From: Ruminococcus sp.
Lineage (GTDB): Bacteria; Bacillota; Clostridia; Oscillospirales; Ruminococcaceae
Assembly: GCA_015066935.1 (NCBI GenBank)
Contig: SVNK01000010.1
Span: 2,159 to 66,158, forward strand
Length of the DNA: 64,000 nt
Direction: 5' to 3'
Shown: positions 40,301-60,010 of the stretch, in pieces
Numbering within the stretch: position 1 is the stretch's first letter
Layout: each line of letters opens with the position of its first letter
The notes under the pieces: generated by a model
Told to the model about the DNA's origin: nothing
What the model saw: the letters and a program-made list of their open reading frames with translations, nothing else
Databases searched by the model: none
Made by a program: the position numbers and the translations under genes

Positions 40301-41187
40301 GTGTTCCCAGCGGAAAGGCTGCTGACCCGGGAACAGCAAGAGCTATCAAGCTCGGTGACGACATGACATCACTTTCAGGTTCAGCTGTAAGAATGAATCC
40401 TCCCTATCTTTTTGAGGACTCAAGTATTCTCAAGGTTGGCAATACTTATTATTACTCATACTGCACAAACTGGAGCACAGGCGGAAATCCCTACGGTTTC
40501 GGCAATGCGGAAATCGCTGTTATGACTTCCACAAATCCCCTCGGACCCTTCACATATAAGGGAATTGCACTCAAGAATCCCGCATCCTACAAGCTTGACG
40601 GCGGCGGAAACAATCACCACTCCATCGTTGAGTTCAAGGGCAAGTACTATGTGCTTTACCACAGCCGTGCACTTTCAAGAGCTATGAACATTCAGGCACT
40701 TAATACTGACGGTTCAATTGATTTAGGCGGTAACTACCGTTCACCTCATATCGACGAGGCTACATTCTCTAACGGAATGTTCTCGGCAACAGGTACAATG
40801 AAGGGCGTTTCACAGATTGAATCACTCAATCCTTATGTAAAGGTTCAGGCTGAGACAATGTCAAATCAGTCCAAGAATCTTAAAGTAAACGGTCTTTGCG
40901 ATACATCTGTTGCAGTCGGCAAGGGTGACTGGTTCAAGACAAGCGGTGTTGACTTCGGCAGCGGTGCATCATCACTCACAATGAAAGCTTCTTCTAAAAA
41001 TGGTGCTGTAATAAGAGTTTGCAGCGGTTCTGCAAAGGGCGAGGTTCTCGCTTACGTACAGATTCCCGCAGGCGGTTCTGCTGAGGAAATTGAAGTTCCC
41101 GTAATCAATTCAGCATCCGGCAAAAACGACATCTACTTTGTATCAAGCGGAGATGCAGAAGTAGACTGGTGGCAGTTTGCTGAATAA
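37339..41187 (+). CDS. Cellulosomal multidomain xylanase/arabinofuranosidase: CBM22-GH10-CBM22-dockerin-GH43-CBM6
   Basis: It has a signal peptide and GH10 motifs (WHSQTP, YDVVNEA, VTELDI). The dockerin reads GDLNFDGKINVFD..VDRNGKFEAADL. GH43 motifs are GADPGFMVYKDRLYVY and WAPDAAW. The C-terminus is CBM6-like. Confidence 0.85.
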   Translation: MNLKRIAASLTAMACFGSIVGTMPEFSDKTYAAEIVCNNFEETYEGWYANDEMAEFAAIPGVGADGTRGMKISNRLNPDSGVSSSKGFYLTGGIKYDYSVQVYSETDETFHVSLLCIDQDTQEETVVELVSKDVKAGEWTELSADYKAPKNSSEFRLTITTDSTNDFCFDNVLITEQRSKNVIVANAAGNGLKEAFNGYGFRVGNILNGNTVNNSGITSNYIKDFNAIECENETKADAILVQNGSTNTDVKVSLNRCAAILDFCVKNNMGFRGHAFVWHSQTPSWFFKEGFSNNGAWVNSSTMDQRLESYIKNTFNAFKTQYPTLNLYAYDVVNEAVSDDSNRTANNGGARLPGDNNVEGGKSAWVQVYGSNAFIEKAFTYARKYAPSTCKLYYNDYNEYWDHKRDCIINTIVKPLYNKGLLDGMGMQSHVPANATGFAGTDSYLQAMDMYLSVGCDVQVTELDISLENGKYSLQDQANKYKAIFQHAMDVNTSGKYKGRVTLVQVWGPNDANSWLSAGSDALLYDSSNQPKLAYTTLMQLGDGNGPFESLDGPITPPEPNEYGWWFQCGFENGDDNWTNRGGNSVEVSDKEHYTEWGSKSLFVYDRTSEWMGAILSLSPVIYKAGESYSFSVHVKQNNEEAVDFKLSLEYTDASGETAYADIAKVTAPKGMWAQLVNTSYKIPDGASDLKIYVETTSSLTDFYMDEAIGAVDKTGIAGEGQPEVKVVVRGDLNFDGKINVFDVVAARKGIINGISDADTKKAADVDRNGKFEAADLVLIHQYVMGKITEFPKAQISIDVAAMEAAFSGVNVLDSWKKDGENNVLWTQRFGADPGFMVYKDRLYVYTTNDAPEYRSDGKIQVNTYNSGTINCFSTADLVNWTDHGAIPVAGRNGRTQNGAAKWATYAWAPDAAWKTINGKDKFFLYFADSAGGIGVLTADSPEGPYTDPIGKALITKSTSGFGDVEWLFDPAVLVDDDGTGYLYVGGGVPSGKAADPGTARAIKLGDDMTSLSGSAVRMNPPYLFEDSSILKVGNTYYYSYCTNWSTGGNPYGFGNAEIAVMTSTNPLGPFTYKGIALKNPASYKLDGGGNNHHSIVEFKGKYYVLYHSRALSRAMNIQALNTDGSIDLGGNYRSPHIDEATFSNGMFSATGTMKGVSQIESLNPYVKVQAETMSNQSKNLKVNGLCDTSVAVGKGDWFKTSGVDFGSGASSLTMKASSKNGAVIRVCSGSAKGEVLAYVQIPAGGSAEEIEVPVINSASGKNDIYFVSSGDAEVDWWQFAE

Positions 41188-41310
41188 GTGAAAAATAATT
41201 AATAATTTTCGTTTAGCCATGCCCTGAAATAGGGTGTGGCTAAGCGTGTAATTAAACAAATTAATTCTTTGAACAATTTTACAAAGAGTTACTAAAAGGA
41301 GGATATTAAG

Positions 41311-47437: not shown

Positions 47438-48631
47438 ATGAAAAAAACAATCCTGATTACAGCTGCTGTTTCGTTGCTTCTGACCACTGCCTGTTCGGGA
47501 CAGGCTCCGTTAAATAATACCGACGGAAATTCTGTATCTTCTTCGCAGCAAACCGCTGATTCTGAGTCTTCAAGTGTCAATATGCAGATTCAGTCCTCAA
47601 GCGACGACGCTCCCCGAAAAAGCTACACTCCGATTAATTATGAAACGCAGATAGGCATGTGGTTTCCGTATCTGTACTACGATGAATACATGAAAGGAAA
47701 GTCTGCCGATGAGTTCAGAGCAGCCGTAAGAGAGCTTTACTCCGAAGCAAAGAGAGAGTCGGTCAATACAGTCTATCTTCATGTCCGTCCGAATGGTGAC
47801 GCATACTATAAATCGGAGATTTTCCCTAAGGGTATCAGTCTTGACGGCGACTATGACCCTTTTCAGATTATGCTTGAGGAGGCTCACAAGCTGGGATTGT
47901 CCGTCCATGCGTGGATTAATCCTCTGAGACTCCAGACAGCTTCAGTCATGGAGACTGTTCCCAATAATTTCATTACAAAGCAATGGGCATCCGACCCGAA
48001 TTCACGGATAGTCCGAGAAGTCAACGGAAGGTTTTATCTTAATCCTGCCCGTGAGGAGACAGCTGAAATTCTCAGACAGAGCGTCGATGAGATTGTGTCA
48101 CAATACGACGTTGACGGAATCCATATTGATGATTACTTTTATCCTACTACAGACCCGCAGTTCGACAGCGTGGAATTCGAGGCAAGCGGCAGTTCCGACC
48201 TCGCAGAATGGCGTACCGACAATATCTCCCGACTTGTCAGAACGATTTACGATACAGTAAAGTCAAAGGACGACAGGATACTTTTCGGTATAAGTCCACA
48301 GGGCAGTATCAGCAACAATTATAACACGCAGTACGCTGATGTGAAACTCTGGGCAGGCAGCGATGACTACTGCGACTACATTGTTCCGCAGATTTATTAC
48401 GGATTCAGAAATTCAACAAATCCTTTCGCTGAAACTCTCGCTCAGTGGGAAAGTCTTACGGGAGAAAATGTGAAGCTGATTATAGGACTTGCCGCATATA
48501 AGCAGGGGAAATATGATAAGTGGGCAGGCGTTTCAGGTGAACAGGAATGGATAGAAGAATCAGATGTGATTCAGCGACAGACTGAGCTTGTAAAAAAGTC
48601 ATCAGCCGACGGTTATGCTCTTTACAAATGA
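47438..48631 (+). CDS. Lipoprotein, glycoside-hydrolase-like family 10 (GHL10/YngK-type)
   Basis: It has a lipobox (LLLTTAC), an S-rich linker and a TIM-barrel-like core (VYLHVRPNGDAYY, HAWINP, GIHIDDYFYP). Confidence 0.65.
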   Translation: MKKTILITAAVSLLLTTACSGQAPLNNTDGNSVSSSQQTADSESSSVNMQIQSSSDDAPRKSYTPINYETQIGMWFPYLYYDEYMKGKSADEFRAAVRELYSEAKRESVNTVYLHVRPNGDAYYKSEIFPKGISLDGDYDPFQIMLEEAHKLGLSVHAWINPLRLQTASVMETVPNNFITKQWASDPNSRIVREVNGRFYLNPAREETAEILRQSVDEIVSQYDVDGIHIDDYFYPTTDPQFDSVEFEASGSSDLAEWRTDNISRLVRTIYDTVKSKDDRILFGISPQGSISNNYNTQYADVKLWAGSDDYCDYIVPQIYYGFRNSTNPFAETLAQWESLTGENVKLIIGLAAYKQGKYDKWAGVSGEQEWIEESDVIQRQTELVKKSSADGYALYK

Positions 48632-48677
48632 TGTGTAATTAAGGAAGGAAAATTGTGAATTTTTTCACAATATACTA

Positions 48678-48706
48678 TTGACTTAAATGACGTATTATGA
48701 TATAAT
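48678..48706 (+). promoter_or_regulatory. Sigma-A promoter of the AGCS transporter gene
   Basis: TTGACT, 17-nt spacer, TATAAT. Confidence 0.6.
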
Positions 48707-48751
48707 TTTACTTGACAAACCGCTGTATTTGCGGCAGATTGGAGTAGAATT

Positions 48752-50173
48752 ATGGAAAGGCTGAATGGCATTATTACTGACATAAATGATTTTATCTGGG
48801 GAGTTCCTCTTGTTGTTGCCGTTTTTTTCTGCGGTATTCTTCTCACGATACGTCTGCGCTTTGTTCAGGTCCGCAAACTCGGCAAGGCACTGAAATTTAT
48901 CGTTAAAAATGAGGACACCGGAAGCGGAAATATTTCAAGCTTTGCTGCACTATGTACAGCTCTTTCCGCTACTGTCGGAACGGGAAATATTGTCGGAGTT
49001 GCTACTGCAATCGGCACAGGTGGTCCCGGAGCACTCTTCTGGATGGAGGTCGCTGCATTTTTTGGAATGGCAACAAAGTACGCCGAAGGTCTTCTTGCAG
49101 TGAAATACCGTGTAAAGAATGAAAACGGCGACTATATCGGAGGTCCGTTTTACTATATTGAAAACGGACTCGGCAGTAAATGGAAATGGCTTGCCAAGCT
49201 CTTTGCAGTGTTCGGACTTCTGGCAGGACTTATGGGTATAGGTACGATTACTCAGATTAACGGAATTACTTCCGCTGCAAACAACTTCTTTGACAAAGAT
49301 GCTTCCAACACTGTTTCACTTTTCGGACGTGACTATACTATAACAACAATTGCGGCAGGTCTTATTGTAACCGTTTTTGTTGCACTCATTGTTATAGGTG
49401 GAATCAAGCGCATTGCTAAGGTTTCGGAATTTGTGGTTCCTGCGATGATATTTGTTTATGTTGCATGCTGTCTTGTTATTATTTTTGGTCACATTACGGA
49501 AGTTCCCGATGCAATTGCAACGATTATCAGGAGTGCTTTCGGATTCCGTCAGTCGGCAGGCGGTTTTGCGGGATATGCTGTTATAAAAGCTTGTATGAGC
49601 AAGGGCGTTGAACGTGGAATCTTTTCTAATGAAGCAGGTCTTGGCTCTGCACCGATTGCTTCGGCTGCGGCAAGAACAAACGAGCCTGCACGTCAGGGAC
49701 TCGTTACTATGACCGGTACTTTCATTGATACTATAATTGTATGTACTATGACAGGTCTTGCTATCGTTATTGGCGGAAGCTATAACAAGGGACTTGAAGG
49801 CGTTGATATTACTATAGACGCATTCAGTTACGGTCTTCCTGTATCTGATAAAACTGCTGCGTTCATAATCATGGTATGTCTTTCATTCTTTGCGTTCACC
49901 ACAATTCTCGGTTGGAATTATTACTCTGAATGTTGTCTTTCATATCTTACAGGCTCGAACAAGAAAGCCTCAGCGGTATTTCGTTGGCTGTATGTTGCGG
50001 CTGTTTTCATTGGTCCCTATCTCACAATCGAAGCTGTATGGAGTCTTTCGGGTGTGTTCAACGGACTTATGGCGTTTCCAAATGTTATTGCTCTGATTGC
50101 ACTTTCGGGCGTCGTTACCGCTGAAACTAAGAGTTACCTGAAACGTCTAAAAGAAGGTAAGGCGGAGTCATAG
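48752..50173 (+). CDS. Alanine/glycine:cation symporter (AGCS family)
   Basis: 473 aa, polytopic, with AGCS signature-like GTGNIVGVATAIGTGGPGALFWM. Confidence 0.85.
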   Translation: MERLNGIITDINDFIWGVPLVVAVFFCGILLTIRLRFVQVRKLGKALKFIVKNEDTGSGNISSFAALCTALSATVGTGNIVGVATAIGTGGPGALFWMEVAAFFGMATKYAEGLLAVKYRVKNENGDYIGGPFYYIENGLGSKWKWLAKLFAVFGLLAGLMGIGTITQINGITSAANNFFDKDASNTVSLFGRDYTITTIAAGLIVTVFVALIVIGGIKRIAKVSEFVVPAMIFVYVACCLVIIFGHITEVPDAIATIIRSAFGFRQSAGGFAGYAVIKACMSKGVERGIFSNEAGLGSAPIASAAARTNEPARQGLVTMTGTFIDTIIVCTMTGLAIVIGGSYNKGLEGVDITIDAFSYGLPVSDKTAAFIIMVCLSFFAFTTILGWNYYSECCLSYLTGSNKKASAVFRWLYVAAVFIGPYLTIEAVWSLSGVFNGLMAFPNVIALIALSGVVTAETKSYLKRLKEGKAES

Positions 50174-50249
50174 TCGATAATAACAGAAGTCTGAATGACC
50201 GCAAGCGTTATTATGTTTTTATTATTCGTTTATACTTTTTTGAATGATG

Positions 50250-50284
50250 AAGCAAAGCTGTAGAAATATGGCTTTGCTTTTTTG
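50250..50284 (+). terminator. Intrinsic terminator
   Basis: Hairpin agcaaagc..gctttgct followed by T6. Confidence 0.75.
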
Positions 50285-50434
50285 TAATCAGAAAAAGGTT
50301 CCCCGAACGAAGTTCGGGGCAATAACCGCCTGCCGTCCTTCCGATGTTTTTGCGGATTCCGCATGGTATTCGCTGAATCTGAGTAAGATAGACAGTTGGA
50401 GAGACGTCACTGTAAGGATACGATTTCATTTTAA

Positions 50435-50464
50435 TTGACAATTGTTTGTGCTGTATGCTATAAT
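50435..50464 (+). promoter_or_regulatory. Consensus sigma-A promoter of the lipid operon
   Basis: TTGACA, 18-nt spacer, TATAAT. The predicted start site falls at the base of the hairpin at 50471-50527. Confidence 0.65.
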
Positions 50465-50470
50465 AAATTT

Positions 50471-50527
50471 AAGGCAACACCGCACAAAGACCGCCTGACG
50501 CACTGTCCTTTGTGCGGTGTTACCTTA
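50471..50527. repeat. Short form (hairpin) of the repeat family, placed at the predicted 5' end of the operon transcript
   Basis: aaggcaacaccgcacaaag..ctttgtgcggtgttacctt. Confidence 0.8.
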
Positions 50528-50543
50528 ATCTTATTATATTATT

Positions 50544-51218
50544 GTGGCGGTGATATTTTTGAAGAAACACAAAACATTCCTCTATCGATTCCTTCGTTTT
50601 TTGTTTGCACCACTGTTTCGGTTTCTTTTCCGTCCTGAAATCGTAGGAAAAGAGAATATCCCCGTAAGCGGCAGAGCTGTGATTGCAGGCAATCACAAGC
50701 ACGCATTTGACCCGATTCTCGTTGATATATGCACAAAACGTATTGTGCACACGCTTGCAAAAAAAGAGCTTCATGACGGCGCATTCGGTTTTATATTCCG
50801 TGGAGTGGGGACGATACCCGTTGACCTTCACAGTAAAGAAAACAAAGCTGCACTTGCTGCTGCGGTTGATGTGCTCAGGGGCGGCCATGTCGTAAATGTA
50901 TCTCCTGAGGCGAAGCGGAATTATACAGATGAACTGCTGCTTCCGTTCAAATACGGCACTGTATCTATGGCGCAGAAAACGAACAGTCCAATTGTTCCTT
51001 ATGCGATTTCGGGAGATTACAAGCTATTTTCAAATAATCTGAAGATTGTATTCGGAGAGCCGTTTTACACAGACGACAGGGAGCTTTCCGACGCAAACAG
51101 CGATCTGTATCATCGTGTGATGAAGCTGTTGATTGAGAACATGAGTCAATCGGAGCTGAAGAAAAAACATATCACAACGTTTGAAGAATGGAGCAGAAAA
51201 AATGAGAAAGCATCTTGA
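50544..51218 (+). CDS. plsC: Lysophospholipid (1-acyl-sn-glycerol-3-phosphate-type) acyltransferase
   Basis: An HX4D motif (NHKHAFD), a PEAKR block and a PIVP block are present. The start codon is uncertain (GTG 50544, or TTG 50559). Confidence 0.75.
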   Translation: MAVIFLKKHKTFLYRFLRFLFAPLFRFLFRPEIVGKENIPVSGRAVIAGNHKHAFDPILVDICTKRIVHTLAKKELHDGAFGFIFRGVGTIPVDLHSKENKAALAAAVDVLRGGHVVNVSPEAKRNYTDELLLPFKYGTVSMAQKTNSPIVPYAISGDYKLFSNNLKIVFGEPFYTDDRELSDANSDLYHRVMKLLIENMSQSELKKKHITTFEEWSRKNEKAS

Positions 51219-52848
51219 ATATCCCGATTGTTCGCTGTATGATTTCCTGAAACAAAATGCGAAGAATTATGAAAGCTCCTGCGCCCTGGAATATTTTGGC
51301 ATGAAGATTACATATCGCCGTTTGCTTGAGGAGATTCACCGCTGTGCCAAAGCTCTGCGACACATGGGAATACAAAATGGAGATACAGTATCGATCTGCC
51401 TGCCCAATATTCCACAAGCAGTGGTAGCTTTTTATGCGGTGAACTGCATCGGTGCAGTTGCAAATATGATTCATCCGCTTTCGGCTCAGGCAGAGATTCT
51501 GCATTATCTGACGGTTTCTCAAAGCCGCATGATCATCGCACTGGATATGACTTCGGAAAAAATACAGAAGGTTCTTCCGCAGACAAACGTTGCACATACG
51601 GTTTACGTCTCTGTTTCTGAGGAAATGCCTTTATATCTGAAGCTTGCGTATCATCTGACGAACCGTAAAAAAGCTGTTCTTCCCTGTGATGCTTTGGTAT
51701 GGAAAGATTTTCTTACACTTGATGGCTCGCAGGAGCTCGCTGCCGAATACCACGGAACAGGCAAGGAATGTGCTGTTATTCTGTACAGCGGCGGTACAAC
51801 GGGAAAGTCAAAGGGGATTATGCTTTCGAATCTTAATTTCAATGCGCTTGCACTTCAGAGCATCGAAAGCTGCGGCTGTCTGTGCAAAGGCGATAGGGTT
51901 CTCTCCATCATGCCGGTTTTTCACGGATTCGGACTTGGTGTGTGCATTCATACTGTACTGAATTTCGGAGGTACGGCAATCATTCTTCCGAAATTCAAGG
52001 CTTCTGAGTTTCATAAGCTTTTGTTCCGATATAAACCGAATGTTATTGCCGGCGTACCTGCGATATATGAGAGTCTGATACGCAGCAGAGCCTTTGAGGG
52101 CAAAGATTTTTCCTTTCTTAAATGTATAATTTCAGGCGGAGATTCTCTTGCCTCTGCCACTAAGGAGAAGCTGAACAGCCTGCTTGCCTCACATGGATGC
52201 AATGTAACTGTGCGTGAGGGCTATGGTCTGACTGAATGCGTTACAGGAAGCTGTCTTGTACCCGATCATTCAACTAAGCTTGACAGCGTAGGATTGCCCT
52301 ATCCCGATACGTTTTATCAGATTCTTGATCCCGAAAGCGGTGCGCCTCTGCCCGTAGGAGAGATTGGTGAAATTGTACTGCGTGGTCCGTCGGTTATGTT
52401 GGGTTATCTGAATGAACCTGCGGAAACTGCCGATACGCTCCGTCTGCACAGCGACGGGAATAAATGGCTTCATACCGGCGATCTGGGATACATGGACGAT
52501 GACGGCTATGTATATTTCCGACAGCGCCGCAAGAGGATGATTGTTTCCGGCGGATATAATATTTATCCCCAGATTATAGAAGAAATCATCAGTAGGCATC
52601 CTCAGGTTATGACGTGTGCCGTCGTTGGGATTCCCGATGAAATTATGGGACAGCGTGTCAAGGTTTATGCAGTGCTTTGCGGAGATGATTCGGATACGGA
52701 AAAGATTAAGACGGAGCTTATGGAAGCTTTGCGGCAGGAGATCGCAGGCTATGCATTGCCGCGCGAGATCGCCTTTGTGCCGTCTATGCCCCGAACCTTG
52801 GTCGGCAAAATTGCGTATACAGAACTGATTGGCATGGAGGAGCGTTAA
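51203..52848 (+). CDS. Acyl-AMP/acyl-CoA ligase (adenylate-forming enzyme)
   Basis: AMP-binding motifs are present: YSGGTTGKSKG, GYGLTE and TGDLGYMDDDGY. It overlaps the plsC-like gene. Confidence 0.85.
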
Positions 52849-52849
52849 T

Positions 52850-54190
52850 ATGCAGAACGATAAGCGATTTTTACTCATTCATCCCGAAATTTCACGTACA
52901 AAATATAATTTTGCAGGTGTCATTGATAATGAGCCGCTGGAGCTGGAATACCTCTATGCATTGCTCAGACAAAACGGCTATGAGCCTGATATCTGGGACG
53001 GACAGGTGGAGAAAATTCCGCTGACCGAAAAGCTCAGAGCATTTCAGCCGGAATATGTATATATATGCGGACGCACACGGCAGGAAAACTTCATGAAGGA
53101 ATACTGCGCATCAGCAAAGGAAATATGCGGCAGTACGGTTTTTATCGGCGGACTGCATGCACAGCATAATTTCCATCGTTTTTACATCAATACAGCAGAT
53201 TATATCTTAAAAACCTTTGATATTTACAAGGTTTTTGATATTCTGGACGGTATGTCGCTTTCGGATATTGATGGAATCTGCTACCGTGATGGTCAGAACT
53301 GGACGGAAAATCCGTCACATCCCTTTGATATAAAACGGCTGCCTCTGCCTGACCGCAGTTATTTCTATGCGCATTCAGACAGATACCGTTATCTTGAACT
53401 GCTGCCGTGTGCCCACGTGCGTACAGCGTATTCATGCCCGTTTCGCTGCAGATTCTGCTATCGGAACCGCCTCAACTGCGGCGTGTATTCCGCACGTCCC
53501 ATTGAGGAGGTTGTGGAAGAAATCCAAAGCATTGACTGTGATAACATATACTTTATTGATGACGATTTTCTTATTGACGAAGAACGCATTCGTACATTTA
53601 TACGTCTTGTGAAAGAGAGGGGGATTCATAAGAAATATGTCTGCTATGGCAGGGCGGATTTTATTGCAAAGCATCCTGAGCTTATGGTACAGCTCAAGGA
53701 AACAGGCTTTTATTATATACTGGTGGGACTTGAAGCAATTGATGATACATTCCTGAATGAATACAACAAATGTTGTGATATGAACAGCAATATCAGAGCC
53801 GTCAAGATTCTCAATAAAGTCGGAATTAATATCATGGGTATGTTTATAGTGGGGCTTGATTTTACAGCAAAGGATTTTTCAAAGCTTTATCGGTGGATCA
53901 AGCAGCATAAGCTTCGTCATACGGCGATTTCTATATTTACTCCTGAGTTTTCTTCAGAGCTTATGGAGGAATACAAAAGCCGCCTGATTACGGAAAATCC
54001 CGAAGCGTGGGATTATCTTCATGTTGTTGCGAAGCCGTCAAGTCTCAGCGTCAGACGGTATTATTTTCATTATCATGTACTACTGGTAAAGCTGTTTTTG
54101 AAAGGTCAGCGAGAAGGAATCTACGATTTTATTGATTACAGCTATTATCTGAAATCGTTTTTTAAAAATATGTTCCGATTCGGAGGGTAA
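52850..54190 (+). CDS. Cobalamin-binding-domain radical SAM enzyme (class B)
   Basis: The N-terminal part is B12-binding-like and Rossmann-type (FLLIHPE.. YICGRT). It is followed by CPFRCRFCY (CxxxCxxC). The start overlaps the ligase stop region. Confidence 0.75.
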   Translation: MQNDKRFLLIHPEISRTKYNFAGVIDNEPLELEYLYALLRQNGYEPDIWDGQVEKIPLTEKLRAFQPEYVYICGRTRQENFMKEYCASAKEICGSTVFIGGLHAQHNFHRFYINTADYILKTFDIYKVFDILDGMSLSDIDGICYRDGQNWTENPSHPFDIKRLPLPDRSYFYAHSDRYRYLELLPCAHVRTAYSCPFRCRFCYRNRLNCGVYSARPIEEVVEEIQSIDCDNIYFIDDDFLIDEERIRTFIRLVKERGIHKKYVCYGRADFIAKHPELMVQLKETGFYYILVGLEAIDDTFLNEYNKCCDMNSNIRAVKILNKVGINIMGMFIVGLDFTAKDFSKLYRWIKQHKLRHTAISIFTPEFSSELMEEYKSRLITENPEAWDYLHVVAKPSSLSVRRYYFHYHVLLVKLFLKGQREGIYDFIDYSYYLKSFFKNMFRFGG

Positions 54191-54214
54191 GCAAGTAAGT
54201 AAGGAGGAGACTTT

Positions 54215-54880
54215 ATGCCTCAGAAAAATACCGTAAAAAAAATTATTCCGAGCAGGCTTGAAACGGGATTCCAGCAATTTTTATACAAGCATGTCGGAAA
54301 GCATATCCCTGAAAGTATGACGCCAAACCGGATGACGCTTGTTGGTGCACTTGGCGGACTGTTTGCGATTATCTGCACTCTGTTGACGCACATCTCGCCG
54401 TTTTTCTTTTTGGGAACGCTGGCAGGTCTGCTCGTGCATATTGTGGCGGATGACCTTGACGGCTATATTGCAAGAAACAGGAATATGTCCTCAAAAGCAG
54501 GCGCATATTTCGACCTGATTACTGACGTTATGTTTTCCACATTTCTCCTGCTTGCACTTGGACTTTCGCCCTATGCCAATATGGAGGTAATGGCATTTGC
54601 CGCACCTGTGTACGGAATTATCAACGTTACCGCAATGAATTACATCATCTATTGTAATGAATTTCTGTTTCCTCGGCTTGGACCGATTGAGGCTCATCTT
54701 ACATATGGTGCGGTTGCGGTTCTGAGTATGATATTCTGCGGAAAATCATTCTTCTGCATATTCGGTATGAACATCATGATTGCGGATATTGTGCTGTTTA
54801 TAGGGCTTATTCCGATGTACTACGAAATGTTCCGTCTGCAGATTCAGCTGTTTCGTAGGCTCAGGGAATCAGAGAGATGA
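54215..54880 (+). CDS. CDP-alcohol phosphatidyltransferase family membrane protein
   Basis: The signature D(x)2DG(x)2AR(x)8G(x)3D(x)3D reads DDLDGYIARNRNMSSKAGAYFDLITD. Several TM segments are present. Confidence 0.85.
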   Translation: MPQKNTVKKIIPSRLETGFQQFLYKHVGKHIPESMTPNRMTLVGALGGLFAIICTLLTHISPFFFLGTLAGLLVHIVADDLDGYIARNRNMSSKAGAYFDLITDVMFSTFLLLALGLSPYANMEVMAFAAPVYGIINVTAMNYIIYCNEFLFPRLGPIEAHLTYGAVAVLSMIFCGKSFFCIFGMNIMIADIVLFIGLIPMYYEMFRLQIQLFRRLRESER

Positions 54881-55518
54881 AAACGATATATATTTGTCTT
54901 GTTGCGGCACATACGGGGCTCGGGAAATTCGTGCGGAGGCTCACAGACTATCCCTATACGCATATTGCGGTCAGTAAGGATGAAAGTCTGACGGATTTTG
55001 TGACCTACTCGCGCAGAAAGCATTATGTGCCTCTGGACGCAGGGTTTATGCATGAATACCGCGATTATTATGCATTCGGAAAACACAGAACTGTCCGCAT
55101 GAAAGTGTATGCTCTGCCTGTTTCTGAGGCTGCCTATGCACGTATTATGCAGTTTATAGGTGCTTGTGAAAGCGATGCCGCACAGATGTTTAATCTGTTT
55201 TCAATGGTCACCATGCCGTTATTTCATGGCTTTCGGATTTACAAGGCGCATAATTGCATGTCGTTTACGGCAAGAATTCTGGAGCTTTCCGAAACAGTAC
55301 CCATGAACAAGCCCTACTGGCGATATGATATACATGAGATGGACAGGCTTCTTGATGGACATCTTTATTTTGAGGGTGAACTTGAACGGACAGACTCTCC
55401 TGATTACGAAAGCTACATGGAGAAGCCTCCTTTTGCGAAAAGACTTTCCGTGTCTGCAAAAACTATTATAACACTGACAAAACGTTGTATGTTCGCACGC
55501 AGCAGAATCGAGGATTGA
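54877..55518 (+). CDS. Hypothetical protein with permuted His..Cys (LRAT/YaeF-type NlpC/P60-like) arrangement
   Basis: YPYTHIAVS is followed about 100 aa later by AHNCMSFTARIL, which resembles the NCEHF-type Cys motif. The ATGA overlaps the upstream stop. Confidence 0.4.
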   Translation: MKTIYICLVAAHTGLGKFVRRLTDYPYTHIAVSKDESLTDFVTYSRRKHYVPLDAGFMHEYRDYYAFGKHRTVRMKVYALPVSEAAYARIMQFIGACESDAAQMFNLFSMVTMPLFHGFRIYKAHNCMSFTARILELSETVPMNKPYWRYDIHEMDRLLDGHLYFEGELERTDSPDYESYMEKPPFAKRLSVSAKTIITLTKRCMFARSRIED

Positions 55519-55844
55519 TACAGAATGAGGTCGATATTATCCGAACAAATGCGGTGCTCTCCACGAAGTATTTCATGCTGTTTGCACGTATTGAGAGCCT
55601 TATTGCGGGTGAATCCATCGAAACGGTATTGCTGCGTGCAACAGTTGGATTCCGAATCAATATGACGGAGATTCTGAAAGGCTTCGGCTTTTCTCATGTT
55701 TATACAGCGGTGGATGAAACAGAAGTCAAACGGTGTCCGGCATATCTCAGCGAGCAGCCGAAATCAGCTATGGTTATCTGCGCACTGCAGGGCTTACGTG
55801 CATACCTTGGCAGAACTACGGTTTCTCCGCCGGATAATAAAAGA

Positions 55845-57620
55845 ATGCTGATGGAGAAAAAAGGAATGAAAGCATTGATTTTCAATTCAGGGCTTGGCAG
55901 CAGAATAGGCAGCCTGACCGAGAATATTCCGAAGTGTCTGTTGAAGCTCAGAAGCGGTGAAAGCATTTTTGCAAGGCAGCTCCGCATTTTATCGGAATGC
56001 GGTATCACCGATGTGGTTGTCACAACAGGAAAATATGAAGCCAAGCTTATTGCTGAAGCAAAGAGGCAAAGCGGGATATCAGTACAGTTTGTCAATAACC
56101 CTCTGTATGCCTCGACCAATTATATTTACTCGCTGTATCTTGCAGGTGAATATCTGGATGATTCAGTTTTAATGCTGCATGGAGATCTGGTTTTTGATAG
56201 GAGTCTTGTGCAGGCAATGCTTGCTGATGAGCGTCCCGATCTTTGCCTTATCAACAGGCAGATTCCCAAGCCTCAAAAGGATTTCAAGGGCAGAATAGAG
56301 GACGGTCGGTTACTGGAGGTTTCGGTGCATATTTTTGATGCGCAGTGCTATGCGCTCCAGCCGATGTATAAGCTTTCCCGCAATACCATGACAAAATGGC
56401 TTGCCCGAACAGAGCAGATGATACACTCAGGATTTACAGGTGTGTACGCGGAAGATGCGCTAAACTACATTGCAGATTCGCTGCATATTGAGGCTATGTC
56501 CTACGCACCGTATTACATCAACGAAATTGATACGCCGCAGGACTATGTACGCGTTTGTGCGGAAATAGAGCGCTATGAAAACGGAGTCAGGTATTCTGTT
56601 TCCTCACTGCAGTCGTTTCTTGCGGAATATCATGCCAGATGTCCGTTTTTTATCATGGGCAGACATCTGTTTGAGAGTGATACTGACCGTTTTCTTGATA
56701 CTCTTGGGATTCCCGTCGGCAGATATTTCGATGTTAAGGAAAACCCGAGCGATGAGAGTGCGGCAGATGCTCTTCGTGCTTTTTTGGAGTATCAGGGCGA
56801 TTTGATTGTTTCTATCGGCGGAGGAAGTGCAATTGATACGGCAAAGGCTGTGAAATTCAGCTTGCTGGATTCTTCTGAATATGGTAACCTTGTGCATATA
56901 GCGATACCCACAACGGCAGGCTCGGGAAGTGAAGCTACGCAGTTTGCGGTTATTTATCGGAACGGCACAAAGTGTTCTCTTGAGCATCCTTCATTACTGC
57001 CTCAGCGATGTATTCTGGACAGCTCGTTGCTTTATAGTATGACAGCACAGCAGCGCAAAGTCTCATTGCTTGATGCGTTTTGTCATAGCATAGAGAGTTT
57101 GCTCTCACATCATGCGTCTGCGGAAAGCAGGGAGCATGCGGCGTCTGCTCTGGATTCGCTGCTTGCATATTATCTTCCGTTTGTAAACGGAGAAGCTTCT
57201 GTTTGTGATGCGGTATTTGCCGCCGCAAATGATGCAGGCAGGGCGATTAATCTTGCCAAGACCTCGTTCGCTCATGCCATGAGTTATGTGCTGACCTCAG
57301 AGCATGGCATCAAGCATGGACAGGCAGCGGCTATCTGTTTGATATACGGTCTGAGGTATGCCGAGCAAATGGGTTTTCAGCCAAAAGCACTTTATGAATT
57401 GCGGCAGGTACTAGGGTGCAGGGGAGAAGAAACTGCCTCTGAGAAATTTGCTGCAATATACCGCAGTATGCAGCCTGAAGAGTATATCTGTCTGCGGAGT
57501 GCGGATCCGACTGAACTTGCAAGCAAGGTAAATGCACAGCGCATTTCAAATTCGGTGATTGCATTCAGTGAGACAGACCTGCTTAACATTTATACTAAGA
57601 TTGTGAAAGCATATTCGTAA
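55845..57620 (+). CDS. Fusion protein: LicC-type nucleotidyl(cytidylyl)transferase + iron-containing (group III) alcohol dehydrogenase
   Basis: The N-terminal domain reads MKALIFNSGLGSRIGSLTENIPKCLL, NNPLYASTNYIYSLYL and NEIDTPQDY (LicC-like). The C-terminal domain reads IGGGSAIDTAKA, PTTAGSGSE and HAMSY..HGIKHGQA (Fe-ADH). The ORF is open from 55485; candidate starts are 55845, 55851 and 55866. Confidence 0.75.
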   Translation: MLMEKKGMKALIFNSGLGSRIGSLTENIPKCLLKLRSGESIFARQLRILSECGITDVVVTTGKYEAKLIAEAKRQSGISVQFVNNPLYASTNYIYSLYLAGEYLDDSVLMLHGDLVFDRSLVQAMLADERPDLCLINRQIPKPQKDFKGRIEDGRLLEVSVHIFDAQCYALQPMYKLSRNTMTKWLARTEQMIHSGFTGVYAEDALNYIADSLHIEAMSYAPYYINEIDTPQDYVRVCAEIERYENGVRYSVSSLQSFLAEYHARCPFFIMGRHLFESDTDRFLDTLGIPVGRYFDVKENPSDESAADALRAFLEYQGDLIVSIGGGSAIDTAKAVKFSLLDSSEYGNLVHIAIPTTAGSGSEATQFAVIYRNGTKCSLEHPSLLPQRCILDSSLLYSMTAQQRKVSLLDAFCHSIESLLSHHASAESREHAASALDSLLAYYLPFVNGEASVCDAVFAAANDAGRAINLAKTSFAHAMSYVLTSEHGIKHGQAAAICLIYGLRYAEQMGFQPKALYELRQVLGCRGEETASEKFAAIYRSMQPEEYICLRSADPTELASKVNAQRISNSVIAFSETDLLNIYTKIVKAYS

Positions 57621-57632
57621 GATATTTCTCTG

Positions 57633-57652
57633 AGCACTGAGCAGTGCTTTTA
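57633..57652 (+). terminator. Weak hairpin after the operon
   Basis: Hairpin agcact-gagc-agtgct followed by ttt. Confidence 0.4.
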
Positions 57653-57702
57653 CTGACAATGAAAAGCGATATATATAAAAGAAAAATCTCCGAAAAATCG
57701 TG

Positions 57703-57751
57703 TTTAAACTGACCCTAAAAAGTTTTTCTTACTTTTTGGGGTCAGTTTAAA
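57703..57751. repeat. 21-bp near-perfect inverted repeat with 7-nt spacer (abutted IS-end-like sequences or a very strong hairpin)
   Basis: tttaaactgaccctaaaaagt-ttttctt-actttttggggtcagtttaaa, with one mismatch. Confidence 0.7.
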
Positions 57752-57775
57752 TGTATTACATACTTCAATTATTGT

Positions 57776-57999
57776 ATGATCCAGTCGTTTTCTGCCAAAG
57801 GATATCCTTATGACAATGCTGTGATGGAATGCTTTTTCAGATATCTCAAGCATGAAAAACAGATCGACGTTCTTATAGCTCATTGCCAGAGCTGCAGGAC
57901 GCTTTGTTCCGTTACATTCATGGTTTCTACAATTCTATGCGTCCACACTCTCATAATAATGGGCTTCCGTCCATTGCGGCTGAAGAGATTGGTGCTTAG
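57776..57999 (+). pseudogene. IS3-family transposase (OrfB) C-terminal remnant, frameshifted
   Basis: It reads IQSFSAKGYPYDNAVMECFFRYLKHEK. In another frame it continues YSSLPELQDALFRYIHGFYNSMRPHSHNNGLP. No upstream catalytic part is present. Confidence 0.75.
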
Positions 58000-58088
58000 T
58001 TCTCTCTTTTTCTGTCTACTTTATTGACATTGGACCATCTTAACTGCACCTTTTTCAGGTATCGGCTTTTTACGATTAGCTTGGGCAT
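57996..58088 (-). pseudogene. 30-codon stub with a strong RBS, possibly the truncated 5' end of a mobilisation relaxase gene
   Basis: AGGAGTG lies 5 nt before the ATG. The peptide MPKLIVKSRYLKK.. is then cut off where the IS3 remnant begins. Confidence 0.3.
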
Positions 58089-58171
58089 AGCATCACTCCT
58101 TTCAGTGGGGATTGTTTTTGCTTCACAAATATGATATAATGATTGTAGTTTTTGTTGATGAGGTGATATGT

Positions 58172-59194
58172 ATGAAAATCGAAATGGGAGAATCTCTTTT
58201 TTATTCTTGGCTGCGTCATGTGAAGGAATGTCAGATAGTACAAACAAACTGGAAGGTATCATCTCAGTGGTCACTATCAAATGCAGAAGAATTAGAAAGA
58301 ATGATGAAGCTTATCGACAATCATTACACACAAAAGTATGACTATGCCATTTTCAAAAACAATTCATCTCTATCTCAGTTGCTACAGCAAGGTGAATGTG
58401 ATGTTCTTGGTATATCTATTCAATCTGATGGGAACCAATACTATGCTGTTGATGTAGCTTTTCATGAAGCAGGATTAAATTATGGCAGTCGAGATACAAC
58501 GGTGATGAAAGTCCTTGAAAAATGTGCAAGGACAGCATTTTGCCTTAATGGGTACATGACAACCAAAGAAGCTGAAATCATTTTTGCATCACCGAAGATC
58601 AATCCATCTGTTCTTTCTGATCTTGAACCTTGTATTGAAGAAATGAATACTATATTCAGCGAAAACGGATATAGCTATATTTTTCGCATTATCGCAAATG
58701 AGGAATATAACGATTCAGTACTGAAGCCTATCCTGTTGGCAAGTGATGGTGTAGCGGATACCTCAGAATTGTTTTTACGCAGTTATCAAATGTATAAAAT
58801 GTTCTCTGACGAAGCAACTAACAGAACCCCAAGAACAAGAACGACTCGAAAAACACATGCTGATGGACTGGACTATACAGAGGCAGATGTATACAAGGAA
58901 TTAAAAATCGGACAGCTTGCTCAAAAAGTTCTGGGACGTTTGTTGATCGATGGCTATGCAACCAATGAAGAAATAGTTGCAATGCAAACACTGGGATATA
59001 GCAAACAGAACTTTGATTTGCAATATCCGCTTTTGGTAGAAGAGAATTCAGATTTTGATCATGTTAGGTATTATGCCAAACCAATTCTCATCAATGGTGT
59101 GAGTTACAGGATGTGTTCGCAATGGTTTGAGACCTCTGCAAATAATGATAGACCATATTTGCTGAAATGGATTGAAGAACACAGCACAAAATAA
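58172..59194 (+). CDS. Orphan 340-aa hypothetical protein (AT-rich cargo gene)
   Basis: GAGGTGA lies upstream of the ATG at 58172, and TATAAT is at about 58135. I recognise no family. The N-terminal half has E..ECDVLGI..AVDVAFHE spacing, weakly reminiscent of a restriction-endonuclease-like fold. Confidence 0.55.
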   Translation: MKIEMGESLFYSWLRHVKECQIVQTNWKVSSQWSLSNAEELERMMKLIDNHYTQKYDYAIFKNNSSLSQLLQQGECDVLGISIQSDGNQYYAVDVAFHEAGLNYGSRDTTVMKVLEKCARTAFCLNGYMTTKEAEIIFASPKINPSVLSDLEPCIEEMNTIFSENGYSYIFRIIANEEYNDSVLKPILLASDGVADTSELFLRSYQMYKMFSDEATNRTPRTRTTRKTHADGLDYTEADVYKELKIGQLAQKVLGRLLIDGYATNEEIVAMQTLGYSKQNFDLQYPLLVEENSDFDHVRYYAKPILINGVSYRMCSQWFETSANNDRPYLLKWIEEHSTK

Positions 59195-59206
59195 TTTTCA
59201 GTATGT

Positions 59207-59240
59207 AAAAGCCGTATCGCACTGATACGGCTTTTGCTTT
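59207..59240 (+). terminator. Intrinsic terminator after the orphan gene
   Basis: Hairpin aaaagccgtatc-gcact-gatacggctttt. Confidence 0.8.
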
Positions 59241-59359
59241 ATTCTTTCTGATACCTGACAGCATCCTCGCAGTCAATGACACCATTTATTTGACGGTTAC
59301 CCAAAAAAACCCTTAGGTGATCCATGGTTTTGCGAATAAAATTTTAGTGTCCATATACG

Positions 59360-59388
59360 CAAAAAAGTCCGAATAATCGGATTTTTTT
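59360..59388. terminator. Bidirectional terminator, positioned as the native terminator of the tRNA fragment
   Basis: Hairpin aaaaaagtccga-ataa-tcggatttttttt. Confidence 0.7.
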
Positions 59389-59417
59389 TGGCATGTGATC
59401 TTTTCGTCACATATAGA

Positions 59418-59474
59418 TGGTGCGGGTGACAGGACTTGAACCTGCACCGAGTTGCCCCGACTGGCACCTAAGAG
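59418..59474 (-). tRNA. 3' fragment of a tRNA-Leu(UAG): anticodon loop, long variable arm, T-arm, 3' acceptor strand and CCA, with no 5' half
   Basis: The reverse complement reads cttaggtgccagtcggggcaactcggtgcaggttcaagtcctgtcacccgcacca. The complementary 5' acceptor strand gcgggtg and a D-arm are absent upstream. Confidence 0.7.
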
Positions 59475-59493
59475 TAGCGTCACGTCAGTGGTT

Positions 59494-59874
59494 TTATTCT
59501 ATCTTGTTTCCATTTCTTATGAGTGCAGTCATAACGACAACAAATTCTGATGGCAGCGGTGGGAAGGTCTGGTTTGATTTCAGGTATTCAAACAGTTCGT
59601 GGTTTTTGTTGACCGTTCTGCAAAACCACGCCGCATCAAGTGCATTCTTTATAGCACCGTTTACACTCATTGGACCAATTGAATATTTCTGACCGACGAT
59701 TTTCAATATGCTTTTATATGTATCACTTTCAATCGGAGTATTCATCCAGAGATAGATAACATCCTTTACATAATTGAAGCCTTTGTATTTTTGTGATATA
59801 CCTAATTCGATCAGTGTTTCGGAAATATGCTGTATGAGAGTTTCATCGGTTGTAATAAGCGTTGTTGTGTTCAT
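59494..59874 (-). CDS. Stand-alone Spo0A C-terminal (DNA-binding) domain-like protein
   Basis: 126 aa. ISETLIELGISQKYKGFNYVKDVI.. MSVNGAIKNALDAAW.. PLPSEFVVVMTALI parallels the Spo0A effector domain. There is no receiver domain. Confidence 0.6.
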   Translation of the reverse strand: MNTTTLITTDETLIQHISETLIELGISQKYKGFNYVKDVIYLWMNTPIESDTYKSILKIVGQKYSIGPMSVNGAIKNALDAAWFCRTVNKNHELFEYLKSNQTFPPLPSEFVVVMTALIRNGNKIE

Positions 59875-59892
59875 AAAATTATTAATCCTTTT

Positions 59893-60010
59893 TTATATGA
59901 TTTTATCGTCGGAGATTTCGATAATACGGTCGCACTGTTTTGCGATTTCAAGGTCGTGTGTGACGATATTATCTCAGCTTTTCAAGTGCATTTTTACCTG
60001 TTCTGCAGAG
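59893..60010 (-). pseudogene. C-terminal remnant of an ABC ATPase (MacB/LolD-like)
   Basis: The reverse strand reads ..DNIVTHDLEIAKQCDRIIEISDDKII*, preceded by stops and frame breaks. Confidence 0.55.

Follow-up and report, generated by a model that had tools for sequence, protein, structure and literature searches.

A Ruminococcus operon under purifying selection as the predicted remainder of a clostridial hydroxyethylphosphonate-lipid gene cluster

Which pathway is encoded by six adjoining genes that bring together enzymes of acyl transfer, radical chemistry and cytidylyl activation? The question is raised by a stretch of 64,000 nucleotides from Ruminococcus sp. (GenBank assembly GCA_015066935.1, contig SVNK01000010.1, positions 2,159 to 66,158), referred to here as the window, which carries an operon at 50435-57620. 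An earlier note on this DNA had described six genes on one strand and had read them as a lipid head-group pathway, possibly for a phosphonolipid; six open reading frames (ORFs) are indeed present on the + strand. They are predicted to encode an acyltransferase (gene 1), an acyl-AMP ligase (gene 2), a radical S-adenosylmethionine (SAM) enzyme (gene 3), a cytidine diphosphate (CDP)-alcohol phosphotransferase (gene 4), a papain-like protein (gene 5) and a cytidylyltransferase fused to an alcohol dehydrogenase (gene 6). The locus is, in our judgement, probably an eight-gene clostridial cluster from which ppm and ppd have been lost, and the intact form of this cluster would make a 2-hydroxyethylphosphonate (HEP) phosphonolipid by a Kennedy-type pathway.

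The two lost genes have left traces. Genes 5 and 6 are separated by a gap of 347 nt (55519-55865), overlooked in the earlier note, that holds fragments of ppm, the gene for phosphoenolpyruvate (PEP) mutase, and of ppd, the gene for phosphonopyruvate decarboxylase. The remnants were mapped by tblastn and blastn of the Ppm and Ppd genes of relatives (L001, L005, L007, L008) against the window; L-numbers denote the related loci or assemblies compared with the window, and P-numbers denote protein homologues. The ppm pseudogene (55525..55639, + strand; tblastn and blastn against L001, L005 and L008) retains the start codon with about nine codons (55525-55553) and codons ~157-188 (55546-55639). The deletion between these parts took ~441 nt, and its junction shares 8 nt of sequence. 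A second deletion of ~1.2 kb removed the 3′ third of ppm and ppd codons 1 to ~290, with the blastn junction at 55639/55640, and left the last ~75-80 codons of ppd as a 3′ remnant (55640..55865, + strand; TIGR03297, tblastn and blastn). The upstream ORF extension of gene 6 matches TIGR03297 over profile positions 277-358 of 360, and in tblastn the ppd remnant shows 61-66% identity with the C-terminal ends of Ppd from L001 and L007. Together the two deletions take out ~1.67 kb of ppm and ppd. All 29 related Ppm proteins carry the motif EDKx5NS near residue 125; this position falls within the first deletion, and the motif was found in none of the six frames of the whole window. An intact Ppm and an adjacent Ppd, by which a phosphonate gene cluster is recognized, are thus absent from the window, where both genes are fragmentary. 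The earlier note had suggested searching for the two genes elsewhere in the genome; their remnants lie inside the operon itself, and no intact copy occurs in the 64-kb window. Because ppm and ppd are deleted, the operon as it reads in the window cannot form a carbon-phosphorus (C-P) bond.

In relatives at 63-85% protein identity, both genes are intact between genes 5 and 6, and the order of the eight genes is acyltransferase, ligase, radical SAM enzyme, CDP-alcohol transferase, gene 5, Ppm, Ppd and cytidylyltransferase/iron-dependent alcohol dehydrogenase (Fe-ADH). This order is intact in L001, L002-L005, L008+L007, L009, L010, L013, L017, L018, L042 and L057. The eight-gene cluster belongs to Clostridia of rumen and gut (Ruminococcus, Oscillospiraceae, Lachnospiraceae, Butyrivibrio). 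The closest relative with an intact cluster is L008+L007, at 77-88% protein identity, and the gene 6 relatives in the eight-gene clusters of L001-L005 show 54-66% identity. The phosphonate idea is therefore supported by synteny. The statement that the six genes supply everything needed was not borne out, since phosphonoacetaldehyde, which Ppm and Ppd would form from PEP in the intact cluster, comes from the two deleted genes.

Is the deletion real, and is what remains still functional? The locus was found in the same chromosomal context in L006, L068-L075 and L079-L084, which are NCBI, ENA, JGI and Logan assemblies from more than 10 samples. The remnant is identical in all assemblies that cover the junction (L006, L068-L073, L075 and L079-L082), while L074 stops short of the gene 5/gene 6 junction. 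An assembly artefact was rejected because the same junctions occur in every covering assembly from all four sources. The assemblies represent four haplotypes, which are 100%, 99.6%, 98.9% and 98.9% identical to the window. Comparison of the first three gave 29 synonymous versus 27 non-synonymous changes in the six genes (ratio 0.27, binomial P = 1.4e-6) and neither stop codons nor frameshifts. Against the fourth haplotype, 30 synonymous and 18 non-synonymous changes were counted (pN/pS 0.17, P = 2.8e-9), and for gene 6 alone the pN/pS was 0.15 (P = 0.006). A relative-rate test of gene 6 against a ppm-linked sister lineage gave no clear acceleration. The remnant differs within the species at 2.3-3.1% of sites, approximately the synonymous rate, and carries indels in addition; in the ORF frame, its ppd part has 1 synonymous versus 7 non-synonymous changes. 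The ppm/ppd remnant drifts neutrally. Purifying selection maintains the six genes that remain, which constitute a functional unit, not a relic.

The opposite assumption, that the window copy is dying and that its remaining genes are functionless and have simply not yet decayed, could draw on the deletion of the committed steps, on an insertion sequence (IS) fragment just downstream and on the neutral evolution of the remnant. We consider it very improbable. All six ORFs are intact in the four haplotypes at pN/pS values of 0.17-0.27 (P from 1e-6 to 3e-9), and the low value holds for gene 6 alone, whereas in the same period the neighbouring remnant gained indels and substitutions that are mostly non-synonymous. 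The promoter is conserved, and L012 and L019 have independently lost ppm and ppd while keeping gene 6. As selection persists without ppm and ppd, the window genes are likely to run on a substrate supplied from outside the operon or on another substrate. In the window species, either another locus or the rumen environment could supply phosphonoacetaldehyde or HEP, or the substrate could be a non-phosphonate.

Gene 6 (55866..57620, + strand) would link the operon to phosphonate chemistry. It encodes a LicC/PntC-type cytidylyltransferase (PF12804) fused to an Fe-ADH (PF00465), starts at 55866 with MKALIFNSG and is 584 aa long, matching its homologues. A start near 55485 was not confirmed by these homologues. 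The corresponding 711-aa ORF from 55485 was considered as a real fusion with the Ppd fragment and rejected, as it is in frame only in the window haplotype. An A6 versus A7 tract polymorphism at 55851-55856, before the ribosome-binding site of gene 6, shifts the frame of the remnant; because the tract gives the gene 6 frame only in the window haplotype, the long ORF is an accident. The non-synonymous changes (7 versus 1 synonymous) and indels in the remnant further rule it out, as does the 584-aa length of the homologues. The remnant of the L079 haplotype forms an ORF of 117 aa, which overlaps with both the stop of gene 5 and the start of gene 6 and shows no sign of constraint.

The cytidylyltransferase domain scores above the cutoff of PF12804 (NTP_transf_3), and its GxGxR loop reads GLGSR. 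Against the Protein Data Bank (PDB), it matched LicC (9e-11) and the PntC-AEPT fusion 6pd1 (6.5e-10), the proteins of the PntC/LicC cytidylyl-activation paradigm (PMC6697681). The best NCBIfam match of gene 6 is the phosphonate-associated Fe-ADH family TIGR03405, with 125 bits against a cutoff of 424. Some homologues are fused to Ppd (P0030, P0031), and orthologues or homologues come after Ppm-Ppd in lipid-type as well as polysaccharide-type loci. We predict, on these similarities, that gene 6 is a phosphonoacetaldehyde reductase and HEP cytidylyltransferase: the Fe-ADH half would reduce phosphonoacetaldehyde to HEP, and the LicC/PntC-like half would convert HEP to its cytidine monophosphate (CMP) derivative, CMP-HEP.

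The cassette formed by these genes occurs in at least four layouts among the loci. In the first, Ppm, Ppd and the nucleotidyltransferase/Fe-ADH fusion lie downstream; the second is similar, with the cytidylyltransferase and the Fe-ADH as separate genes. In the third, the cassette is divergent and upstream and consists of a 671-aa triple fusion of NTP_transf_3, CTP_transf_like and Ppm, together with a separate Fe-ADH and Ppd. The fourth has a Fom1-like CTP_transf-Ppm fusion (L048). Most of these loci have an Fe-ADH as the tailoring enzyme and none an aminotransferase, which points to HEP, not aminoethylphosphonate (AEP), as the branch to which the product belongs. In L076, a gene 6 homologue of 41% identity follows a CT-Ppm and a Ppd within a Wzy/Wzx/glycosyltransferase locus. 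As the trio Ppm-Ppd-cytidylyltransferase/Fe-ADH is also found in this polysaccharide locus, it can be regarded as a portable CMP-HEP cassette.

The sequence of steps proposed in the earlier note (aldehyde, alcohol, CMP activation, radical step, transfer) agrees well with the early fosfomycin pathway, in which PEP is converted to 2-HEP-CMP by Fom1/Fom2/FomC and then methylated by Fom3 to CMP-hydroxypropylphosphonate (HPP-CMP; PMC8158854), with a CDP-alcohol transferase to follow in the present case. The intact relatives share with that pathway the enzyme types Ppm, Ppd, Fe-ADH, cytidylyltransferase and cobalamin-type radical SAM enzyme, as well as the predicted intermediate CMP-2-hydroxyethylphosphonate, and L048 even has the Fom1-like CT-Ppm fusion. 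One may thus ask if the intact cluster makes a soluble fosfomycin-like antibiotic and not a lipid. This is highly improbable. The loci share no conserved FomD-like hydrolase, HppE/Fom4 epoxidase, resistance gene or exporter, the membrane-bound CDP-alcohol transferase and the acyl-handling enzymes are always in the cluster, and the radical SAM gene is retained even where phosphonate genes are missing. A fosfomycin-type cluster was accordingly rejected on the missing FomD/Fom4-type genes among the conserved neighbours. The cytidylyltransferase of the window lineage also differs, being of the LicC/PntC (PF12804) type and fused to Fe-ADH, not to Ppm; furthermore, the cluster adds a CDP-alcohol transferase and three acyl-handling proteins, and in the window Ppm and Ppd are deleted. 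Gene 3 is also present in loci that lack phosphonate genes, a co-occurrence pattern that argues against a strict dependence on phosphonate.

To which acceptor would the activated HEP be transferred? Gene 4 (54215..54880, + strand) encodes a membrane protein of the CDP-alcohol phosphotransferase family (PF01066, 41 bits against a cutoff of 22) with the complete signature D-x2-DG-x2-AR-x8-G-x3-D-x3-D (DDLDGYIARNRNMSSKAGAYFDLITD). Its nearest solved relatives are IPCT-DIPPS (4mnd, the top match), CEPT1, AF2299 and CHPT1, while PgsA reached merely E = 0.09; the nearest relatives take small CDP-alcohol donors. As in the Kennedy-type (CEPT1/CHPT1) and LicC/PntC systems, a cytidylyltransferase would be followed by a CDP-alcohol phosphotransferase, and genes 6 and 4 match these two enzyme types. 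The similarity is distant, however (E from 1e-4 to 1e-10), and the top match of gene 4 is an archaeal DIPP synthase with a soluble acceptor. We propose that gene 4 would transfer the phosphonyl group from CMP-HEP to a lipid alcohol such as diacylglycerol, whereby CMP would be released and a phosphonolipid would result.

Alternatively, HEP could form a glycan or teichoic-acid-like decoration on a cell-surface polymer or a glycolipid anchor, with the acyl enzymes serving the anchor. The presence of the Ppm-Ppd-cytidylyltransferase/Fe-ADH cassette in the Wzy/Wzx/glycosyltransferase locus of L076 fits this explanation, as does the fact that CDP-alcohol transferases can take soluble acceptors, DIPPS being an example. 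Moreover, exopolysaccharide conjugates are the only HEP products of bacterial surfaces that are cited as characterised (PMC8942020). Yet no glycosyltransferase, flippase or polymerase was found to be conserved beside the five-gene core in the 59 loci compared, and three of the five core proteins come from acyl-handling families. A surface polymer is for these reasons an improbable destination, and we continue with a lipid acceptor.

The acyl-handling proteins begin with gene 1 (50544..51218, + strand), a PlsC/AGPAT-type acyltransferase whose start is either GTG at 50544 or TTG at 50559, both used in public gene calls. Domains were called with Pfam and NCBIfam, and for genes 3 and 5 folds were compared with AlphaFold models. 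Gene 1 matched PF01553 at 3.7e-22 (79 bits), and its HX4D motif reads NHKHAFD. Its NCBIfam matches, AGP_acyltrn and the acyltransferase domain of the Aas-type acyl-ACP-phospholipid O-acyltransferase, are all below cutoff; with 78 bits for TIGR00530 against a cutoff of 103, gene 1 can be called a member of the superfamily only. Gene 2 (51202..52848, + strand) is a FadD-like acyl-AMP-forming ligase (PF00501 5e-78, plus PF13193), with long-chain-fatty-acid--CoA ligases as its best, sub-cutoff NCBIfam matches. Judged by their domains, genes 1 and 2 look like an Aas enzyme split in two. The 2-acyl-GPE acyltransferase/acyl-ACP synthetase Aas of E. coli likewise unites a PlsC-type acyltransferase with an AMP-forming ligase, and genes 1 and 2 overlap; they encode separate proteins, however, and their scores are far under the family cutoffs. 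The pair would use a free fatty acid, after its activation, to esterify a hydroxyl group.

Gene 3 (52850..54190, + strand) encodes a cobalamin-type radical SAM enzyme of class B architecture. It scores above the cutoff of PF04055, and its CxxxCxxC motif reads CPFRCRFC. Of the cobalamin-domain radical SAM enzyme claimed earlier, the radical SAM part was thus recovered directly; the cobalamin-binding domain PF02310 stayed below threshold (26.4 against 32.1 bits), but is listed in most gene 3 homologues, and the architecture is backed by structural matches. With this qualification, all domain calls of the earlier note that were checked in Pfam were confirmed (PF01553, PF00501, PF04055, PF01066, PF12804 and PF00465). 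The best NCBIfam matches, HpnR, BchE and PhpK, are far under their cutoffs. The AlphaFold model (pLDDT 88.5) gave full-length matches to MgmA, TsrM, OxsB, AprD4, CysS and TokK (TM 0.63-0.76), nearly all of them cobalamin radical SAM enzymes, with AprD4 in addition, and a profile search also retrieved OxsB, TsrM and CysS. Since these structural and profile matches support the cobalamin architecture, C-methylation is the likeliest chemistry, and gene 3 is probably a C-methyltransferase whose substrate these matches do not identify. It would most likely methylate an unactivated carbon, either on CMP-HEP, as Fom3 does, or on the lipid part of the molecule.

Gene 5 (54877..55518, + strand) is an uncharacterised protein of 213 aa, for which the AlphaFold model (pLDDT 91) predicts a permuted papain-like fold of the NlpC/P60, YiiX/C92-like kind. 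No match was obtained in Pfam, NCBIfam or PADLOC, and the gene 5 profile retrieved nothing relevant from the PDB; only the comparison of folds was informative. The family has ~412 members, all unnamed and none with a Pfam match, in which His29, His49 and Cys127 (in NCMSF) are invariant. Foldseek comparison of the model with the PDB gave TseH, 3kw0 and YiiX (E = 5e-3), and viral proteins annotated as 'permuted papain-like amidase YaeF/YiiX C92' were matched with E-values down to 1e-6 and TM of 0.5-0.65. The match to LRAT in BFVD was weak (E = 0.058), and hhalign against PLAAT3 aligned 10 residues comprising only the NCxxF motif (E = 0.18). The predicted fold thus agrees with permuted NlpC/P60 papain-like proteins such as YiiX/YaeF (C92), TseH and LRAT/PLAAT, and the invariant residues stand in the same permuted order as in LRAT/PLAAT (His, His, Cys in NCxxF); no sequence-level relationship of gene 5 to any of these proteins was detected, though. 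The earlier label 'permuted His/Cys LRAT-like' is therefore apt at the level of the fold, whereas membership of that family is not established, as the PLAAT3 alignment illustrates. In the proposed pathway, gene 5 would be a thiol acyl-transferase or hydrolase, and genes 1, 2 and 5 would supply or remodel acyl chains.

How far is the phosphonate cassette tied to the other genes? Gene 5 was scanned for in one genome per GTDB species and was present in 59 species, mostly rumen or gut Ruminococcus, Oscillospiraceae, Lachnospiraceae, Butyrivibrio and Eubacterium, including cultured strains of R. flavefaciens and R. albus and [Clostridium] asparagiforme. The complete five-gene module (genes 1-5) occurs in fixed order and spacing in 45 of the 59 loci. 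Ppm lies within the fetched flank of 20 of the 45 complete modules, and a further five have only Ppd, Fe-ADH and/or a cytidylyltransferase; the partial cassettes of L027 and L063 probably reflect the end of the fetched flank. In L012 (8659-10428) and L019 (8660-10423), the cytidylyltransferase/Fe-ADH gene directly follows gene 5 and neither ppm nor ppd nor a remnant is present, and in L015 and L055 only the cytidylyltransferase is kept after gene 5. These four loci indicate that C-P synthesis was lost repeatedly while the activating enzyme was kept. No ppm/ppd remnants were found in the 27 loci without phosphonate genes, and decay of the window type is thus specific to the window lineage. Further neighbours of the core in the cassette-free loci (CapD, GSIII, xanthine permeases, MoxR and others) were considered as conserved partners and dismissed as unrelated and not conserved.

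Several of these observations weigh against a HEP lipid. In the remaining 20 of the 45 complete modules, no phosphonate gene is present in the fetched flanks, which extend at least 3 kb on both sides in 13 of them, and on the radical SAM tree the cassette-linked and unlinked loci are interleaved. In L066 (6607-9591, [Clostridium] asparagiforme DSM 15981) and L037 (6607-8642), a lone pair of a radical SAM gene and a gene 5 homologue stands without CDP-alcohol transferase, acyltransferase, ligase or phosphonate genes nearby. The core may accordingly not need phosphonate at all. The 64-kb window holds no other ppm, no phnW and no phosphonate importer, and none of the six proteins reaches a curated NCBIfam equivalog cutoff. 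Finally, the lipid acceptor is deduced from enzyme families only, and no product has been observed in this family of clusters.

These points lead to the most substantial alternative, namely that the five-gene module makes or remodels an ordinary phosphate-ester lipid, that the cassette is optional and that the window gene 6 acts on a non-phosphonate alcohol phosphate or another aldehyde. It would explain the 20 of 45 cores without a nearby phosphonate gene, among them those of cultured R. flavefaciens and R. albus, the retention of the cytidylyltransferase only in L015 and L055 and of the fusion without ppm, ppd or remnant in L012 and L019, and the persistence of selection on the six genes after the loss of ppm and ppd. 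In L066, moreover, the radical SAM/gene 5 pair is followed by a DegV fatty-acid-binding protein. On the other hand, wherever a module for head-group supply is visible beside the core, it is a phosphonate module, and no choline, ethanolamine or inositol genes were seen there. For the Fe-ADH half of gene 6, the best-matching family is likewise phosphonate-associated, homologues of gene 6 follow Ppm-Ppd even in unrelated polysaccharide loci, and the genomes counted as unlinked may carry the cassette elsewhere. On balance, we regard an ordinary phosphate-ester product as rather unlikely and prefer the HEP lipid. The lone pairs do, however, bear on the site of the radical step. They suggest that the radical SAM enzyme and the gene 5-like protein act on a lipid by themselves, and because of this co-occurrence pattern the lipid is favoured as the target of gene 3; a radical SAM step on the head group, as assumed in the earlier note, is doubtful.

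We infer each chemical step and the nature of the product throughout, whereas gene content, synteny, deletions, population data and selection are direct observations. A bolder form of the HEP-lipid proposal would be that the core and the cassette together produce a so far unseen class of bacterial membrane lipids, based on HEP or 2-hydroxypropyl-phosphonate, by means of a cobalamin radical SAM methylase and a new thiol acyltransferase family, and that several rumen lineages, that of the window among them, gave up C-P synthesis and kept the other steps because they scavenge phosphonate precursors from the rumen community. Protozoal AEP is abundant in the rumen. We put this extended version forward tentatively, as a possibility that is by some distance less probable than the HEP lipid as such.

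Among predicted systems, the 'Burkholderiales_CDP-OH' clusters (Group 1 of Yu et al. 2013) are comparable; according to Li and Horsman 2022 (PMC8942020), a phosphonolipid is predicted for them and has never been isolated. As far as they are described there, they share with the present family Ppm/Ppd, phosphonyl-tailoring cytidylyltransferases and a gene of the CDP-alcohol phosphatidyltransferase family, and also contain a phospholipid-synthesis gene. They differ in that, on that description, an aminotransferase and a 2-oxoglutarate oxygenase lead to AEP or 1-hydroxy-AEP, while the present family has an Fe-ADH and would belong to the HEP branch. By the same comparison, the present family adds the radical SAM enzyme, the Aas-like acyltransferase/ligase pair and the papain-like protein, and it is found in anaerobic Bacillota. 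The earlier statement that no characterised pathway with this gene set is known was in line with our full-text literature search, which did not take in the survey of Yu et al. 2013 and found no paper on the set. Most likely, from all comparisons taken together, the window cluster is a HEP-branch, lipid-directed phosphonate cluster with unusual tailoring enzymes, of which the window copy is truncated yet selected.

The operon is preceded by a sigma-70-type promoter at 50435..50464 (+ strand), with TTGACA, an 18-nt spacer with an upstream TG, and TATAAT. It is the sole 12/12 match and the best site in a 12-kb scan (48000-60000), which confirms the consensus promoter claimed earlier; promoter-like sites as such occur there at chance level (29 observed versus 27.7 expected). 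Its sequence is the same in all four haplotypes. Just upstream, an intergenic stretch between the terminator of the Na/alanine symporter gene and the promoter (50283-50382) varies, and the L068 and L079 haplotypes have ~150 nt of different sequence in its place. For the leader that separates the -10 box from gene 1, RNA folding predicted a very stable hairpin immediately behind the box, followed by a U-rich stretch (50469..50528, + strand; -31.7 kcal/mol, z = -7.4), and none of 200 shuffled sequences was as stable. The stem is kept in every haplotype, and the loop of the L079/L080/L081 type has a 120-nt insertion bordered by CTGACG direct repeats. A riboswitch was rejected, as Rfam at gathering thresholds gave no match in the whole window, the hairpin included; the hairpin may act as an attenuator, or it may represent the ends of a small element that was inserted.

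Translational coupling had been proposed for the whole operon. Genes 1/2 have a 17-nt overlap (51202/51218), genes 2/3 are adjacent (52848/52850), and genes 4/5 have an ATGA overlap (54877/54880). Genes 3 and 4 are 24 nt apart, and genes 5 and 6, with 347 nt between them, are not translationally coupled. The gap (55519-55865) contains no promoter-like site on the + strand, and terminator-like hairpins inside the operon are weak and at chance level only.

Directly after the stop codon of gene 6, a smaller hairpin with TTTT is found at ~57632-57651. The space that separates gene 6 from the IS fragment also holds a long near-perfect palindrome (AAACTGACCCTAAAAAG ... CTTTTTGGGGTCAGTTT) at 57703-57752, possibly a bidirectional terminator or else the end of an element. 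The IS fragment itself (57776..57994, + strand; YPYDNAVMECFF ... FYNSMRPHS) is a frameshifted C-terminal piece of what, from its sequence, reads as an IS3-type transposase. Pfam found nothing on the short pieces, and the joined peptide matched more than 5000 plasmid records, at multi-copy places. The fragment would mark past activity of a mobile element at the locus, outside the pathway. It is followed by a 340-360-aa ORF (58112-59194) without a Pfam or PADLOC match, beyond which the region is strain-variable; L069 has a GDSL lipase/dockerin gene there, whereas L080 and L081 have other ORFs. The remaining 56 kb of the window are core chromosome with cellulosomal glycoside hydrolases and contain nothing that bears on substrate supply. 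A 910-aa EAL-domain protein is encoded at 33164-35896. The stretch 37339-44181 encodes two very large enzymes with dockerin and CBM modules, a GH10+GH43+CBM6 protein of 1282 aa and a GH30/esterase protein of 956 aa, which indicate that the organism is a cellulosome-producing rumen fibre degrader.

To our knowledge, every characterised phosphonolipid carries AEP or a close derivative. If true, a HEP-lipid pathway would therefore represent a new lipid class in dominant fibre degraders of the rumen, such as R. flavefaciens, R. albus, Butyrivibrio and their relatives, and thereby in an ecosystem of economic importance, and it would provide a new setting for a Fom3-type or lipid-directed cobalamin radical SAM enzyme. 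The cluster also gives a testable function to the gene 5 family of some 400 unnamed proteins, and the Ppm-Ppd-cytidylyltransferase/Fe-ADH trio appears as a portable unit that plugs into lipid or polysaccharide loci. The window lineage is a natural experiment, in which C-P synthesis is gone while the downstream genes remain under selection, and which points to phosphonate salvage, a second genomic source or a phosphonate-independent core. Should the scavenging of rumen precursors prove true, it would mean phosphonate cross-feeding into membrane lipids.

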